Below are positions 5,661 to 37,508 of a stretch of DNA of 45,156 bases, piece by piece. The position numbers and the translations under genes were made by a program. The notes under the pieces are model-generated. The model saw nothing but the letters and a program-made list of their open reading frames with translations, was not told where the DNA came from and searched no databases. How positions within the stretch are numbered: position 1 is the first letter of the stretch; each line of letters begins with the position of its first letter. Origin of the DNA: a bacterium (GTDB taxonomy: Bacteria > UBA8248); NCBI GenBank assembly GCA_965213685.1, contig CBDBZY010000026.1, positions 1 through 45,156 on the forward strand, written 5' to 3'.

Positions 5661-6641
5661 TCAGCTCCCGACGCTTCGCGTCCGCCGGACGCGCCCGATG
5701 CGCCCTCCTCGCATGAGGCCCGCCCGAACGAACAGGTAGGCCAGCGCGCCGAACCACGCCCCCGAGGCTGTGCCGCCGAACAGCGCGTTCAGCATATCCG
5801 CGACGAGGCTTCCTGCCCAGAAGGAGACGGCGAGGATCATCCCCTCCGAGACGAGGCGCCCCAGGCGCCTGGCGAATTGTCTTTGCCTGGCCTGAAATGC
5901 GTCGCGCTCCGCCTTGACGCCGACGATCATGGGCGCCAGGCCGCGCCGCCATCCGTGGGACGCCACCATGAGCAGATGCCCGAGCGTGAAAAGGATGAGG
6001 AACAGCATGACGAGGAAGTGCAGGAACCTGCTCGACTGATACCCCCCGAACAGCCAGGTCAGCCACCCGAGCTGCACGGGCTTCAGGATGGCGAGCCCGG
6101 TGAGGACGGAGAGGACGCCGGCCAGTATGACGGCGTTGTACGCGAACTTCTGAATCGGGTGGAACTTTCCGTCCCCGGGCGGATGGTGAAAGGTTCGTAT
6201 GGGGTGAAGGAGCATCTGTTTCGCACCGGAGAAATCCTCCCGCGCGATGCGGTAGTGGCGCCCTTCCTCCGTGAGGAGAAGGGAGAGCAAGAAAACCAGG
6301 CCGTTGATGGTGTAGGGCCACATGAGGGCGAAGTGCCAGCGGAGGGCGCCCGCGAGCCATCCCCCGAGCCCGAACGTGTTCGCGAGGGACTGGACGAAAC
6401 TTCTGTAGTCAGCCCCGAGTTCGATGCCGCGCGCGTCGGCCTGGGCCTGCGTGCCCCGCACCGCCGCGAAGATGGTTTCCGGGTTGGGCCGGTCCGGCCC
6501 GAAGGCGGGATACGCCCACCATATCTGAAGCCCGCTCGCCATCATCAACAGCAGCAACGGGACGTTCAGCCAGTGGGTGATCCGCAACAGGGGGGAGTAG
6601 GCGTAGGCCGGTGCGCGCGGCGTTTTTTCCGTCTCCATCAT
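5661..6641 (-). CDS. b-type cytochrome membrane subunit (Ni/Fe-hydrogenase / thiosulfate reductase cyt b family) with extra C-terminal TM segments
   Basis: LRITHWLN, LRWHFALMW, KFHPIQKFAY, RFLHFLVM..GHLLMV heme-His motifs; ATG 6641 overlaps the upstream TGA. Confidence 0.85.
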   Translation of the reverse strand: MMETEKTPRAPAYAYSPLLRITHWLNVPLLLLMMASGLQIWWAYPAFGPDRPNPETIFAAVRGTQAQADARGIELGADYRSFVQSLANTFGLGGWLAGALRWHFALMWPYTINGLVFLLSLLLTEEGRHYRIAREDFSGAKQMLLHPIRTFHHPPGDGKFHPIQKFAYNAVILAGVLSVLTGLAILKPVQLGWLTWLFGGYQSSRFLHFLVMLFLILFTLGHLLMVASHGWRRGLAPMIVGVKAERDAFQARQRQFARRLGRLVSEGMILAVSFWAGSLVADMLNALFGGTASGAWFGALAYLFVRAGLMRGGRIGRVRRTRSVGS

Positions 6642-7177
6642 CGTTCGGCGAGCAGCTGCAGGATCATCGCTTCGGTGCGCGCGTGGTTGCCCTCGCCAAT
6701 CGTCTGGAATCGCACGATTCCCCTCTTGTCGATCAGGTATTTCGTCGGCCAGTAGCGGTTGCGGTAGGCGTTCCAGTTGGCGAACCGGTTGTCCATCACG
6801 ACGGGGTAGGGGATGCGGAGCCTGGCGATGGCGGCCTCTACGTTCTCTTTGCTCTTCTCGAAGCCGAACTCGGGCGCGTGGTTTCCGATGATGACCAGGC
6901 CCCGGTGCCTGTAGCGCTCGTGCCACGAACGCAGCGTGGGGAGCTCCCGCACGCAGTTGATTCAGCCGAACGTCCACATGTCGAGGAGCACGACCTTGCC
7001 GCGCAATTCCGCGAGCTGCAGCGGTGTATTGTTGTTGTCGCCGCCGCCCAGCCAGGGCCCGCCCCGCAGCTCGGGTGCGCGCGTTCCGGGTGCGAGCCCC
7101 GACGCGCGCGCCTGAGGGAGCGTCCAGAACATGGCGAGGAGCGCCGCGGCGCCGGCATAGGCCCAAGCGCGCTTCAT
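6638..7177 (-). CDS. secreted thioredoxin-fold (TlpA/DipZ C-terminal-like) selenoprotein, UxxC
   Basis: Track ORFs 6962-7243 and 6638-6952 are the same frame, joined across TGA 6962-6964: LRGKVVLLDMWTFG-U-INCVRELP...NHAPEF...YWPTKYLIDKRG. Signal peptide from ATG 7177, RBS AGGAG. Confidence 0.88.
6934..6954 (-). promoter_or_regulatory. putative bacterial SECIS hairpin
   Basis: GCGUG-C-GGG[AGCU]CCC-CACGC at +8..+28 after the UGA; loop G at +18. Confidence 0.6.
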
Positions 7178-7340
7178 CGTGGTCTCCTGTTGCGGGAAAG
7201 CCGCCTGCGCGGATACTTTAGGGAAATGATTGAACGGATGCAAATACTTCTATACGATGATCGGGCGGATTTTCCGACCTGTGGCGCTTCGCGGGTTTTG
7301 CCCAGTTGCGGGCAAGGAGACGGAAGAGGGGTATCCGGGG

Positions 7341-9805: not shown

Positions 9806-9996
9806 TCCCGCACCCTTCTCCTCTCTTCTTCCCATCCTTCCCACCCGGGGCGATCATAGCATAGACTGGAGAGAATGTGGCAGCCCGACGGCGCCCGGAA
9901 GCCGTTGCCCTGGATGGCGCCAGCCCGTAAGTCCAGGGGGGATGCGCGAGAGTCTTCCGGCGCGCACGAGAAAATATGCTTTCGGGAGGGGAGGGG

Positions 9997-10683
9997 ATGA
10001 TGCATATGCCGGTTGTGGAAATTTTCCATGAGTATCATTGACCGTGGGCATACCTGGCCGCGGCGCGGCTGGACAAGGTGATGCCCGGTTTTGAGGGAAA
10101 GCTGTTGCTGCGATGGCGCGCGTTTCCCCTGGAAGTCATCAACGACCGCCCGGCGCCGCGCCATATCGTGGATCAGGAGTGGCCGCTGGTGGCGGTCCAG
10201 GAGCCGCTCGCCCCGTGCAGAGGCTGGCCCCACGACGCGTATTTGCGGAGCACGATGCCCGCTTTTCAGGCCTACGCGAGTGCCTACGCGCAGGACCCGG
10301 AAAGGGCGCGCGCCTATGACTTGAGGCTGAGGCGCGGTTTTTTCTATGAGGGCAGGCGGGTGGACGAGGTTCTCGTTCTCGTCGAGATCGCGGCGGAGGC
10401 GGGCCTGGACCCTGCCCGTGTGCGCGCGGACCTCGAGTCGGGCAAATACGAGAAAGCCGTGATGGATGACTACAGGGAGGCCATGCGGCTGCGCGATGCG
10501 GAGGGATTGCCGATGACCAGCCCCACCCTGATCCTTCCGGGCGGGGAGGTCCTGCACAATCCCTATGCGTCCGAGAAGACGATAGAAGACGGGAGGCTGA
10601 CCGAGGTGCACGCACCGCCCGCTTACGGGGAGGCGGTGTATGCGGGGTTTCGGGAAATCCTGTCGAGAGCGGCGTCCGGGTGA
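9997..10683 (+). CDS. DsbA/FrnE-like thioredoxin-fold selenoprotein, UPWA motif
   Basis: RBS GGGAGGGG, then MMHMPVVEIFHEYH-U(TGA 10039-10041)-PWAYLAAARL, in frame with track ORF 10078-10683 (WRAFPLE, AAEAGLD, cis-Pro loop TSPTL). Confidence 0.82.
10054..10072 (+). promoter_or_regulatory. putative bacterial SECIS hairpin
   Basis: CUGGCCGC[GGC]GCGGCUGG, 8-bp stem with 2 G-U pairs; loop G at +21 from the UGA. Confidence 0.6.
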
Positions 10684-34217: not shown

Positions 34218-34318
34218 CGGGTTGTTCCTGTCGATGATAAATTGTGAATTCTGGAGAATCAGCATACCATAACCGGGGGGATGAAAAACGGGGAATCCAC
34301 AGGAAAAAGGACGCCGTT

Positions 34319-35161
34319 TTGCCTTTGAGCGACTCTCAGCTGGAAGCCGTTTGCGATCTGCTGGATGATGGTTCGCCGAGCGTGGCCGCGGTTTTGAACC
34401 GCCAGGTTTCAGGGTTCTCGGACGAGGAGCGGACGAAACTCTTCTTGATGTTGCAAAAGCGCGAGTCCCAGGGGGTGCTGCTGCCGCCATCGCTCAGGCG
34501 CTTCCATTACGCGCGGATCGAAGACGCTTTCTTGGACTGGTCTCTCTCCTCGGGGAAGGATGCGGATCTGGAGGATGCGTGCTTTATCCTGGCGTCCTTC
34601 GGCCACCCGCTGGAGGACATGAAGACGAGAAAGGACGAATTGCGGAACATGGAGGCGCATTTGCGCCAGCGTCTGGGGGGTCTCGCCGAAACGGACGCGG
34701 TTCTCGCCGAGGTGGTCGCGTATCTGCACGGAGACCTCCGGTTTGACGGGGATCGGGAAAATTACTATGACGCGCAAAACAGCTTTCTGAATCGCGTGCT
34801 GGATCGCAGGCGGGGCATTCCCATATCCCTCTCCGCCCTGTATCTGATTCTCGCCAGGCGGCTGCGGCTTCCGTTTCATGGCGTGGGGATGCCGGGACAT
34901 TTCATCGTCAGGTACCAGTCCGTGGAAGGCCCCATATTTCTGGACCCCTATGATCGGGGCAAACGCCTGAGCGTGGGGGATTGCGCGGAAATCGTCCGGG
35001 GGCTAGGCTATCATTTTGACATGCGGTTTTTGCAGGAAACCCCGCCTCGGCGCATCGTGGAGCGGATGCTCAACAATCTGATCGGCGTTTACAAGCGCGA
35101 CGGCGAGGATGAGAAGGCGACCTGTCTGCTCCGCTGTCGGGAACTGGCGCAGCGGGGATAA
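34319..35161 (+). CDS. SirB1 / transglutaminase-like domain protein
   Basis: YYDAQNSFLNRVLDRRRGIPISL, GVGMPGHF, LDPY, RMLNNL. Start codon uncertain. Confidence 0.85.
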   Translation: MPLSDSQLEAVCDLLDDGSPSVAAVLNRQVSGFSDEERTKLFLMLQKRESQGVLLPPSLRRFHYARIEDAFLDWSLSSGKDADLEDACFILASFGHPLEDMKTRKDELRNMEAHLRQRLGGLAETDAVLAEVVAYLHGDLRFDGDRENYYDAQNSFLNRVLDRRRGIPISLSALYLILARRLRLPFHGVGMPGHFIVRYQSVEGPIFLDPYDRGKRLSVGDCAEIVRGLGYHFDMRFLQETPPRRIVERMLNNLIGVYKRDGEDEKATCLLRCRELAQRG

Positions 35162-35186: not shown

Positions 35187-35642
35187 ATGAACTATTTCGA
35201 GCTGGCGGAGAATCTGGCGTTCGGGGGTCAACCAAACCGCGAAGACATGGAGTCTCTCGCGCGGAGGGGAATAAAAACCCTGGTGAACTTGCGCCTGGCG
35301 GATGAAGGCGAGTCCGAGCTCCCGCCGGATGCGGAGGAAAAGGCGGCCCGGGAGCTGGGGATGGACTTCGTGCATATTCCCGTAAGCGTCAGCACCATGA
35401 ATGACGCCTTGTCCAAAGAAATCGGCGAGACGATTCGCGGGGCCAGAAAAGGCGGACCGGTGTTTGTCCACTGAAAGGGCATGGGGCGGGCCGGGATTTG
35501 CTCGCTGATGCATCTGGCGGAAGAGGAGGAGATGGGCACCGCCGAGGTGTTGCAGAAGGCGCGCGCACTGGGGCTGGACTGGCGGGCCTCCTCCATCGGG
35601 GGATATTTCCAGAAATTCGCGGACCAGAGAAAGAAGCCCTGA
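35187..35642 (+). CDS. DUF442 / PTP-fold (sulfurtransferase or phosphatase-like) putative selenoprotein, H-U-x5-R
   Basis: GGQP, GIKTLVNLR, GMDFVHIPV, GPVFVH-U(TGA 35472-35474)-KGMGRAG, then open to TGA 35640-35642 (151 aa). Confidence 0.85.
35484..35503 (+). promoter_or_regulatory. putative bacterial SECIS hairpin (weak)
   Basis: GGGCGGG[CCGGGA]UUUGCUC, 7 pairs of which 4 are G-U; loop Gs at +19..+21. Confidence 0.4.
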
Positions 35643-35663: not shown

Positions 35664-37355
35664 TCATTCGTCCGTGACGCACCCCTCCGATGCGGAAGAC
35701 ACGCATTGGGCGTATTTGTAGAGCGTGCCCCGGGTGGCCTTCAGCGCGGGTGCCCGCCAATTCTCGCGGCGTCTCTCTATCTCGGCGCAGGATACCCGGA
35801 GTTCCATGACGCGCCCCTGGGCGTCGATCAGAATGGTGTCGTCGTCTTCGATGAGGGCGATGAGGCCGCCGGCCTGGGCTTCGGGCGTGACGTGCCCGAC
35901 GACGAAGCCGTGGGTGCCGCCCGAGAATCTCCCGTCCGTGATGAGGGCCAGCGCGTCGCCGAGGCCGGCTCCCATGATGGCGGACGTCACCGTCAGCATC
36001 TCCCGCATTCCAGGCCCGCCCCGGGGGCCCTCGTAGCGGATGATGACGACGTCTCCCCTTTGAATCCTGTTCTCCTCCAGCCCCTTGAGGGCGTCTTCCT
36101 CCGAATCGAAGCAGCGCGCGGGTCCCTCGAAACGCTCCCCCTCTTTCCCGGTAATCTTGGCGACGGCGCCCTCCTCCGCGAGGTTTCCGTAGAGGATCTG
36201 GAGATGTCCGGTTTCCTTGATGGGGGATGAGAACGGGACGATAACCTTCTGCCCCGCGTGGAGATCGGGCAAATCCTCGATGTTCTCGGCAAGCGTCTTG
36301 CCCGTGACGGTGAGGCAGTCCCCGTGGAGCAGGCCTTCTTTCAGAAGGAGTTTCTGAACGCCCGGGACGCCGCCTACGTCGTGCAGGTCTTCCATGACGA
36401 ATTTTCCGCTGGGCTTCAAGTCCGCGATGTAGGGCGTTCGGTCGCTGATCTCCTGAAAATCGTCTATCGTGAGTTCGACCCCGACGGCTTTGGCGATGGC
36501 GATGTAGTGTATGACGGCGTTGGTGGAGCCCCCCAGAGCCATGATGATGGCAATCGCGTTCTCGAACGCCTCCCTCGTCATGATGTCGCGCGGTTTGATG
36601 TCGTTTTCGAGCAGATGGTAAATGGCTTTTCCCACGTCGAGGCACTCGTTTTTCTTGTCCTCGCTCATGGCGGGGTTCGACGCGCTGTACGGCAGGCTCA
36701 TGCCCAGCGTTTCGATGGACGAGGACATCGTGTTCGCCGTGTACATGCCCCCGCAGGCACCGCCGCTCGGGCAGGCGTTCCGGATGACGGACTGAAAGCG
36801 GGCCGCATCGATCTGGCCGGAGAAGTATTCCCCGTAGGCCTGGAAGGCGGAGACCACGTCCAGCTTGTCGCCGTTGAGGAATCCCGGGCTGATGGTGCCT
36901 CCGTAGACCATCAGGCCGGGCCGGTTGAGGCGCGCCATGGCGATGATGGAGCCGGGCATGTTCTTGTCGCATCCGGGGAGCGTGACCAGGGCGTCATACC
37001 ATTGCGCGGCAACGACGGTTTCTATGGAATCGGCGATGAGGTCCCGGGATTGCAGGGAGTACTTCATCCCCTCCGTGCCCATGGAGATGCCGTCGCTCAC
37101 GCCGATGGTGTTGAAAATGAGGCCCACCATTCGCTTGTCGGCGTTCACGCTGCGTTTGATGTATTCGGCGAGTCGGTTGAGATGAAAATTGCAGGAGTTT
37201 CCCTCCCACCACATGCTGGCGATGCCAACCTGCGGATTTTTCATGTCGATCTCATCCAGTCCCGCGCCGTAGAGCATGGCCTGGGAGGCGGCCTGGGAGG
37301 GCGGCTGGGTGACGCGCTGGCTGAACCGGTTCAACGCCGTTTTCTGCTCTGCCAT
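35664..37355 (-). CDS. ilvD: dihydroxy-acid dehydratase
   Basis: [56 protein letters not shown]. Confidence 0.97.
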
Positions 37356-37508
37356 GTTCTTCTCTCCTCGCTGCTCGGATGATGAAAACAATTTCCTTCA
37401 TTTCCATCGCCCTGCGATGATTTTTGGCGCTTCAGACAGAAATACCGCCATCGAATGCCCGCGCCCGCTTCGGGAGGCGGTGAGAATGCGCGAACATCAT
37501 GGACGACT

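Follow-up and report, generated by a model that had tools for sequence, protein, structure and literature searches.

An in-frame UGA in a DUF442-family gene

The locus analyzed here is a short gene on the forward strand (35187..35642) of contig CBDBZY010000026.1 (assembly GCA_965213685.1), from a bacterium of the GTDB lineage UBA8248; "the window" denotes the whole stretch of 45,156 nucleotides in which the gene lies. The reading frame opens at ATG 35187, a start backed by orthologues beginning M[NDEH]YF and preceded at a distance of ~7 nt by a Shine-Dalgarno-like run (AAGGGA), and meets an in-frame TGA at 35472-35474, i.e., at codon 96, where the table-11 open reading frame (ORF) ends as ...GPVFVH. 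The initial annotation had proposed a continuation of 55 codons behind this point, completing a 151-residue product, and re-reading of the frame bore this out: past codon 96 it stays open as KGMGRAGICSLMHLA... (a post-TGA reading of the 35187 frame that is also written KGMGRAGICSLMHLAEEEE...) up to a terminal TGA at 35640-35642, giving 151 codons plus the stop. Orthologues are colinear over residues 1-150 in 16/16 loci and end within a few codons of this stop, with TAA, TAG or TGA. As detailed below, 35187..35642 is very probably a genuine selenoprotein gene of the DUF442/BLH_phosphatase family, encoding a protein with a protein tyrosine phosphatase (PTP)-type fold in which selenocysteine (Sec, U) takes the position of the catalytic cysteine.

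The open frame alone carries little weight, because TGA-spanning frames are common in DNA of 60% G+C; 216 of them are listed in the window, of which three were covered by the Pfam scan. The in-frame TGA itself is conserved. Using tblastn with residues 1-149/150, read straight through the stop, we retrieved 16 orthologous loci from species-representative genomes; together with the window, codon 96 is TGA in 17/17, and the terminal stops vary among TAA, TAG and TGA. Across the phylum, 57 of 58 matches, from 35 of 51 genomes, carry the in-frame TGA, the sole match without it being a short remnant with TAA. TGA also stands at the aligned position in all 19 fetched loci of a second, paralogous set (type-2) and in 18/18 metagenome loci, the latter a biased sample because the search pattern was drawn from the Sec clade's own post-U sequence.

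The part behind the TGA is under purifying selection, with a ratio of non-synonymous to synonymous divergence (dN/dS) of 0.175 over codons 111-149 as compared to 0.114 over codons 1-95 (Nei-Gojobori method, 136 pairs). Codon 99 is not conserved as a start, being ATG, GTG, TTG, GTT or CTC among relatives. Contigs assembled from four public runs of one study, the source of the window possibly among them, likewise read TGA at codon 96. One of these contigs represents a strain variant 97% identical to the window, with 19 substitutions, none of which falls in 35425-35537, and no indel inside the ORF. This variant (run X4) starts with GTG rather than ATG and has two bases inserted behind 35161 in the upstream spacer; its TGA and hairpin (see below) are unaltered. 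The outcomes that the initial annotation had named as fatal to its proposal, namely TGA confined to this one genome, a downstream part free of purifying selection, or sequence data giving TGC, were thus not encountered, and TGA-bearing orthologues with a conserved 3′ hairpin, which it had suggested looking for, were found by tblastn; the metagenome loci likewise carry the TGA.

In protein databases, the family is visible in truncated form. A word-indexed search of 5.8 billion proteins returned 25 hits, 21 of them exactly 95 residues long, and 22 of the 24 non-query rows in their alignment end ...VH at the same column. Gene callers everywhere terminate the protein at codon 96. The NCBI name of one such 95-residue member is 'sulfur transferase domain-containing protein'. 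A 94-residue database protein (P0023) has a different make-up, with approximately residue 58 joined in frame to approximately residue 117 and the Sec loop gone; it represents a deletion variant or else an artefact of assembly.

A candidate SECIS element within the catalytic codons

Downstream of the UGA, a 7-bp hairpin forms the core of a putative selenocysteine insertion sequence (SECIS; 35485..35506, forward strand), with its 5′ arm at 35485-35491, an 8-nt loop at 35492-35499 (CGGGAUUU) and its 3′ arm at 35500-35506. It begins 10 nt after the UGA, with 17 nt between UGA and loop, and has a consensus energy of -11.3 kcal/mol. The published model of bacterial SECIS elements (bSECIS) allows a loop of 3-9 nt with G in the first two loop positions, a stem of 4-16 bp, 16-37 nt from UGA to loop and a minimum free energy (MFE) of -7.5 or lower (PMC13188914); the hairpin fits this model in loop, stem, spacing and energy.

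All seven pairs form in 30/30 sequences from both paralogue groups, the sole change being G.U to A-U in one pair. The longest invariant nucleotide run of the gene, 17 nt at 35490-35506, coincides with this element, the next longest run measuring 5 nt. Among 60 degenerate codons whose amino acid is invariant, seven are also invariant as codons, five of which are consecutive (codons 102-106), and synonymous divergence (dS) falls to 0.25 over codons 97-110 as compared to 0.98-1.18 elsewhere. It is this conservation in sequence that argues for the hairpin as a recoding signal. Accordingly, the initial annotation, which had ranked this SECIS candidate as the weakest of its four, was right as far as folding energy alone is concerned, which is unremarkable, and wrong with regard to conservation, the element being the best-conserved nucleotide stretch of the gene. 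An MFE fold of the window genome alone extends the hairpin by a possible lower stem (35476..35515, forward strand); this extension is not conserved across relatives, folds no better than shuffled sequences and gives no covariation signal.

Both arms are coding: the 5′ arm is made up of the codons for the catalytic Gly-Arg-Ala and the 3′ arm of those for Cys105-Ser106-Leu107. The locus clearly exemplifies a SECIS whose sequence is supplied by catalytic-loop codons. The own genome encodes SelA (564 bits) and SelB (370 bits) as well as tRNA-SeC(tca) (78.6 bits), each scoring above its cut-off; its selD, which is fragmented in this assembly (see below), includes the GGUGSK motif with a Sec codon. 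With tRNA-Sec, SelA and SelB in the organism, UGA codon 96 would be read as selenocysteine through SelB bound to the hairpin inside the coding sequence.

Selenocysteine aligns with the nucleophile of a six-residue loop

To place the 151-residue product in a family, we compared it with profile, sequence and structure collections. In Pfam, BLH_phosphatase (DUF442, PF04273) scored 36.6 bits against a cut-off of 26.1, PTP-NADK scored 36.7 bits, likewise above its cut-off, and the DSP-PTPase families PF22741 and PF22785 score above theirs. Below threshold remained DSPc (15.5 bits vs 33.5), the rhodanese model PF00581 (12.8 bits, E 0.17, vs 22.2) and the NCBIfam Blh model NF040641 (65.5 bits vs 625). 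The initial annotation had pointed to DUF442 and DSPc as models to search, and had described a DUF442/Blh-type domain with Sec in place of the catalytic Cys; the profile scores single out the former family, and the alignment given below agrees with the latter description. An AlphaFold2 model computed from a 67-row alignment reached a mean predicted local distance difference test score (pLDDT) of 94.6. Its top Foldseek matches were the DUF442 structures 3GXH, 3GXG and 2F46, followed by many PTPs and dual-specificity phosphatases (DSPs), and a sequence search of the PDB returned the same three. We assign the product to the DUF442/BLH_phosphatase family as a predicted cytoplasmic protein with a PTP-like fold.

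Exhaustive searching of 1.84 billion representatives with HMMER yielded 1870 homologues at E <= 0.001, and the 101 proteins of 135-175 residues among the top 150 hits served as the homologue set. Under U96, 93 of them have C and six have S, with D and G occurring once each; at 45% identity to the window's protein, P0027 is the closest of the Cys forms. U96 opens the six-residue loop U-K-G-M-G-R (Sec96-Arg101; 35472..35489, forward strand), with His95 directly before it. Among the Sec forms, Arg101 occurs in 34/34 and His95 in 33/34; among the homologues, the counts are 96/101 and 100/101, respectively.

A six-residue loop with Cys at its start and Arg or Thr at its end is the rhodanese signature. 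The initial annotation had read the loop as the PTP signature HCxxxxxR. Arg does stand five positions after U, as it had stated (U96...R101), leaving four residues between the two, and so the spacing is U-x4-R, of the rhodanese/DUF442 type, and not the C-x5-R of PTPs. In line with this, aligning the PTP ShufPTP requires a one-residue gap in the query loop, and the general-acid Asp of ShufPTP falls on Val68. The Val68 column is non-acidic in the 101 homologues, its six commonest residues being P, M, V, L, G and S.

Proposed function and its alternatives

Of the two activities that the initial annotation had offered, seleno-sulfurtransferase or seleno-phosphatase, the former is favoured and the latter disfavoured because the PTP general-acid Asp is absent, with Val68 at its position. 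A rhodanese-type activity is favoured by the six-residue loop combined with the fact that the tested DUF442 domains are sulfurtransferases. In the DUF442 domain of the Cupriavidus SQR, which has the loop CRTGTR, Cys94 and Arg99 are reported as essential for sulfane-sulfur transfer (PMC8533005, PMC9163753), and the DUF442 domain of Xylella Blh is reported to move sulfur from thiosulfate to cyanide or glutathione (PMC5823870). The analogy with these tested Cys members of the family (Blh and the SQR-fused DUF442) tips slightly in favour of the product acting as a rhodanese-type sulfane-sulfur transferase. In such an enzyme, the Sec96 selenolate, assisted by Arg101, would pick up sulfane sulfur, with thiosulfate, a persulfide or a polysulfide as the donor, carry it as an Se-S(H) adduct and hand it to a thiol or sulfite acceptor. 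Selenium might confer an advantage here as the better nucleophile and leaving group and by resisting over-oxidation. For the statement as a whole, a selenoprotein with sulfurtransferase function, we estimate a probability of roughly 0.65.

A number of observations weigh against this statement. At the RNA level, compensatory double changes are seen in 0/7 pairs of the hairpin, shuffles reach the observed covariation in most trials, the folding energy is no better than that of shuffled sequence (z -0.83 and -0.90), and no Rfam family attains its gathering score over the window, with nothing relevant at E <= 10 in 35400-35620. As to the selenium machinery, selD of the own assembly is broken up into pieces that occupy at least three reading frames. 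This is the assembly's only selD (G000:C31:101342-102100, minus strand), and each of its pieces is well conserved; the gene is intact, with a single TGA, in 8/8 same-genus genomes, and the split may be an assembly fault (indels) or a recent lesion. At the protein level, TIGR01244 scored 48.5 bits against a cut-off of 85.85, which places the product on a branch that has diverged and may act on other substrates. The conserved neighbours include no sulfide-oxidation gene, and a link to a Sec-type SQR (NF049943) was considered and rejected, the best own-genome hit scoring 20.8 bits against a cut-off of 525. Lastly, the invariance of Cys105 in the Sec clade hints at redox chemistry over plain transfer.

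Such chemistry would make the protein a two-residue redox selenoenzyme, in which Sec96 attacks a persulfide or an oxyanion (e.g., arsenate) and Cys105 resolves the product as an Se-S bond, which thioredoxin or glutaredoxin then reduces, as in thiol-coupled arsenate reductases and in most UxxC/CxxU selenoproteins. Cys105 (codon UGC, 35499..35501, in the 3′ arm of the hairpin) occurs in 34/34 Sec forms as against 2/101 other homologues, one of which is the nearest Cys form, P0027, and the other P0101; elsewhere the position is L, F or M. Also in keeping with a redox role, redox activity and a partner Cys characterise most catalogued selenoproteins (PMC13188914), and the Sec clade sits on a long branch (0.71). 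However, the Cys-Ser-Leu stretch may be imposed by the RNA, because the 5′ arm of the SECIS is fixed by the catalytic Gly-Arg-Ala codons and the Cys105 codon lies in the opposite arm. Arsenate-reductase selenoproteins (TIGR00014, with a UxxS motif, and NF041106) likewise have Sec for a catalytic Cys that attacks an oxyanion, coupled to thiols, but their folds differ and no arsenate-reductase family in NCBIfam matches the product at E <= 1. Cys105 may act as a resolving residue through a selenenyl-sulfide bond to Sec96, or may be dictated by SECIS pairing. We regard the redox enzyme as an unlikely alternative to the sulfurtransferase.

Considerably less probable is a true PTP/DSP-type phosphatase working through a seleno-phosphoryl intermediate. 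The above-cut-off scores of the two DSP-PTPase families speak for it, as do the structural matches to Tk-PTP, TpbA, SsoPTP and DUSPs, with Foldseek probability 1.0 and template modelling (TM) scores of 0.6-0.79. Indeed, the classical enzymes (ShufPTP 9E9L, Tk-PTP, TpbA) have the fold in common with the Sec protein, and in both the nucleophile opens a loop that leads into a helix. Yet both of their hallmarks are missing: the loop is one residue shorter than C-x5-R, and the column that aligns with the ShufPTP general-acid Asp is non-acidic, most commonly P, M, V or L. To this is added that the tested DUF442 domains are sulfurtransferases.

That the gene does not encode a selenoprotein at all, the TGA either terminating a 95-residue product or pseudogene or being read through as an ordinary amino acid, is very improbable: gene callers and NCBI do annotate the 95-residue form, selD is fragmented in the own assembly and the hairpin is without covariation support, but a 95-residue product would lose the catalytic loop along with three helices, purifying selection acts on the 55 codons downstream, which stay colinear in all relatives, codon 99 provides no conserved start, the TGA is kept in dozens of genomes at protein identities down to ~40%, and both ilvD and the gene itself end at a TGA that acts as an ordinary stop.

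Relation to known families

Compared with the tested DUF442 proteins, i.e., the N-terminal domain of Blh (Xylella/Agrobacterium) and the DUF442 domain of the Cupriavidus pinatubonensis SQR, the product belongs to the same Pfam family and has the same fold, the same six-residue spacing from nucleophile to Arg (UKGMGR here, CRTGTR there) and the same His before the nucleophile. It differs from them in having Sec instead of Cys, in standing alone at 151 residues rather than being fused to a dioxygenase or SQR, in carrying Gly at loop position 5 rather than 4, in the extra Cys105, in its score below the TIGR01244 cut-off, and in its operon-like arrangement with a SirB1-like gene instead of sqr/pdo genes. 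The best structural matches, 3GXH/3GXG from Shewanella and 2F46 (NMA1982) from Neisseria (E 1e-8 to 1e-7, TM ~0.75), are also its only close PDB sequence matches; their Cys aligns with U96 at the same C-x4-R spacing. With 20-23% identity to the window's protein, they are Cys enzymes deposited as putative phosphatases.

A precedent for Sec carrying sulfane sulfur comes from the rhodanese-like selenoproteins, forms 1-5 (PF00581, NF041203, NF045694; PMC13188914), which are themselves predicted. They share with the present protein a Sec in a sulfurtransferase-type loop, whereas fold and family are different and their motifs are UxxS, UxxG, CxU and UxxxxU, not H-U-x4-R. Table 1 of the same 2026 review assigns domain accessions to 119 prokaryotic selenoprotein families and subfamilies. 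DUF442 is not among them, and the paper contains no PF04273, TIGR01244, PF22741, Blh, phosphatase or sulfur transferase; its nearest entries are the five rhodanese-like and two arsenate-reductase forms, which have different folds. The available parts of a 2022 review (PMC9312934) and of the Global Ocean Sampling (GOS) survey (PMC2398784) hold no such entry either, and a full-text literature search returned no paper pairing DUF442 with selenoprotein or selenocysteine. This agrees with the initial annotation, which did not count the family among those of the classic bacterial selenoprotein lists. As far as we checked, the gene thus represents an undescribed Sec variant of a known sulfurtransferase family, although the supplements of BSepDB and of other surveys may list it; the BSepDB paper (PMC13326102) describes metagenome-assembled genomes labelled Nitrospinota with 48-54 selenoprotein genes.

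If the protein were confirmed, the known selenoproteome would gain one family and, with the PTP fold, one fold class. Because current annotation ends all members at residue 95, databases lack the catalytic half of the enzyme. The Sec and Cys forms further provide a natural pair for probing the effect of selenium on persulfide-carrier chemistry.

Genomic context and distribution

Directly upstream on the same strand lies a SirB1-like gene (34244..35161) of the transglutaminase-like superfamily (Transglut_core2; PF13369, 150.6 bits, together with a weak hit to NF008188, SirB1). Judging from an alignment, its true start is probably near 34319. It ends in TAA at 35159-35161, 25 nt before ATG 35187, and no promoter-like site was found between the two genes. 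A SirB1-like protein of 280-305 residues is encoded immediately upstream in 16/16 orthologous loci, and the same place is taken by such a gene in 6 of 9 distant metagenome loci, where the Sec protein shares only ~40% identity with that of the window. The SirB1-like gene is therefore a likely operon partner of the Sec gene, and the Transglut_core2 family gains a conserved enzymatic neighbour against which its own role may be tested.

On the other side, 21 nt away, ilvD (dihydroxy-acid dehydratase; 35664..37391, minus strand; PF00920, PF24877) converges on the Sec gene. It ends in TGA (35664-35666), which indicates that TGA is an ordinary stop in the window organism. ilvD adjoins the Sec gene, on either strand, in 16/16 orthologous loci and 6/9 distant loci. 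Its strand differs between genera (L079, L080 and L087 as compared to the window, L074, L076 and L083), as if ilvD alone had been inverted. A metallo-beta-lactamase-fold gene beside the paralogue in the own genome was also considered as a functional neighbour and rejected, tblastn finding it in 0/18 metagenome loci.

All 35 matching genomes among the 51 of the phylum fall into one family-level group, in which 34/41 match when the own genome is excluded. Within the genus, the syntenic copy represented by the window is present in 21/23 genomes, the own one included, and a second Sec paralogue in 22/23. This second copy is ~40-43% identical to the window copy; in the own genome (G000:C31:175846-176292, forward strand) the identity is 43% and the gene neighbourhood differs. 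In all 19 loci fetched, U falls at the aligned position and the hairpin core is shared with the window copy. One genome of the genus holds merely a short, TAA-ended remnant of the syntenic copy (G025:C10:131441-131719), and another (G033) is without it. The own assembly measures 8.0 Mb in 71 contigs, as compared to 2.9-4.6 Mb for 22 same-genus genomes, and its estimated contamination is 3.7%.

A quick maximum-likelihood tree (135 rows, U column treated as a gap) unites the 34 Sec forms with a single Cys form, P0027, in one clade (Shimodaira-Hasegawa-like approximate likelihood-ratio test, SH-aLRT, 100). The branching of P0027 at the base of this clade is not resolved, and the tree is therefore compatible with a single Cys-to-Sec change, though short of proving it. 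A search of the phylum's 51 genomes at E <= 1e-10 brought up no Cys form. The distant metagenome copies linked to Transglut_core2 group with the second copy of the genus and not with the window copy, which suggests faster divergence, following a duplication, of the copy that stayed at the ancestral site.

Combining context, history and active site, a bolder picture can be drawn, which we consider speculative and, taken in full, improbable. The protein would be the first natural PTP-fold selenoenzyme, an uncatalogued family with two Sec paralogues in one selenoprotein-rich lineage (its records are labelled Nitrospinota). It would operate a Sec96-Cys105 selenenyl-sulfide relay and form a fixed two-gene module with the SirB1-like protein beside the Fe-S enzyme IlvD. 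A conceivable task would be the mobilisation or reduction of sulfane sulfur, or of selenium, in the service of cluster repair or of selenium trafficking.

Two further ORFs in the window have an in-frame TGA within a recognizable domain. The first, on the minus strand at 6641-7243, is an AhpC/TSA-Redoxin (TlpA-like) ORF whose codon 94 is TGA, giving the motif FG-U-INC (UxxC); its PF00578 match (residues 55-179) spans the TGA, and a hairpin begins ~7 nt after the UGA. The second, on the forward strand at 9976-10680, is a DSBA-like ORF with TGA at codon 22 (H-U-P-W), again spanned by the domain match (PF01323, residues 13-181). Both are selenoproteins of known kinds, the latter DsbA-like.

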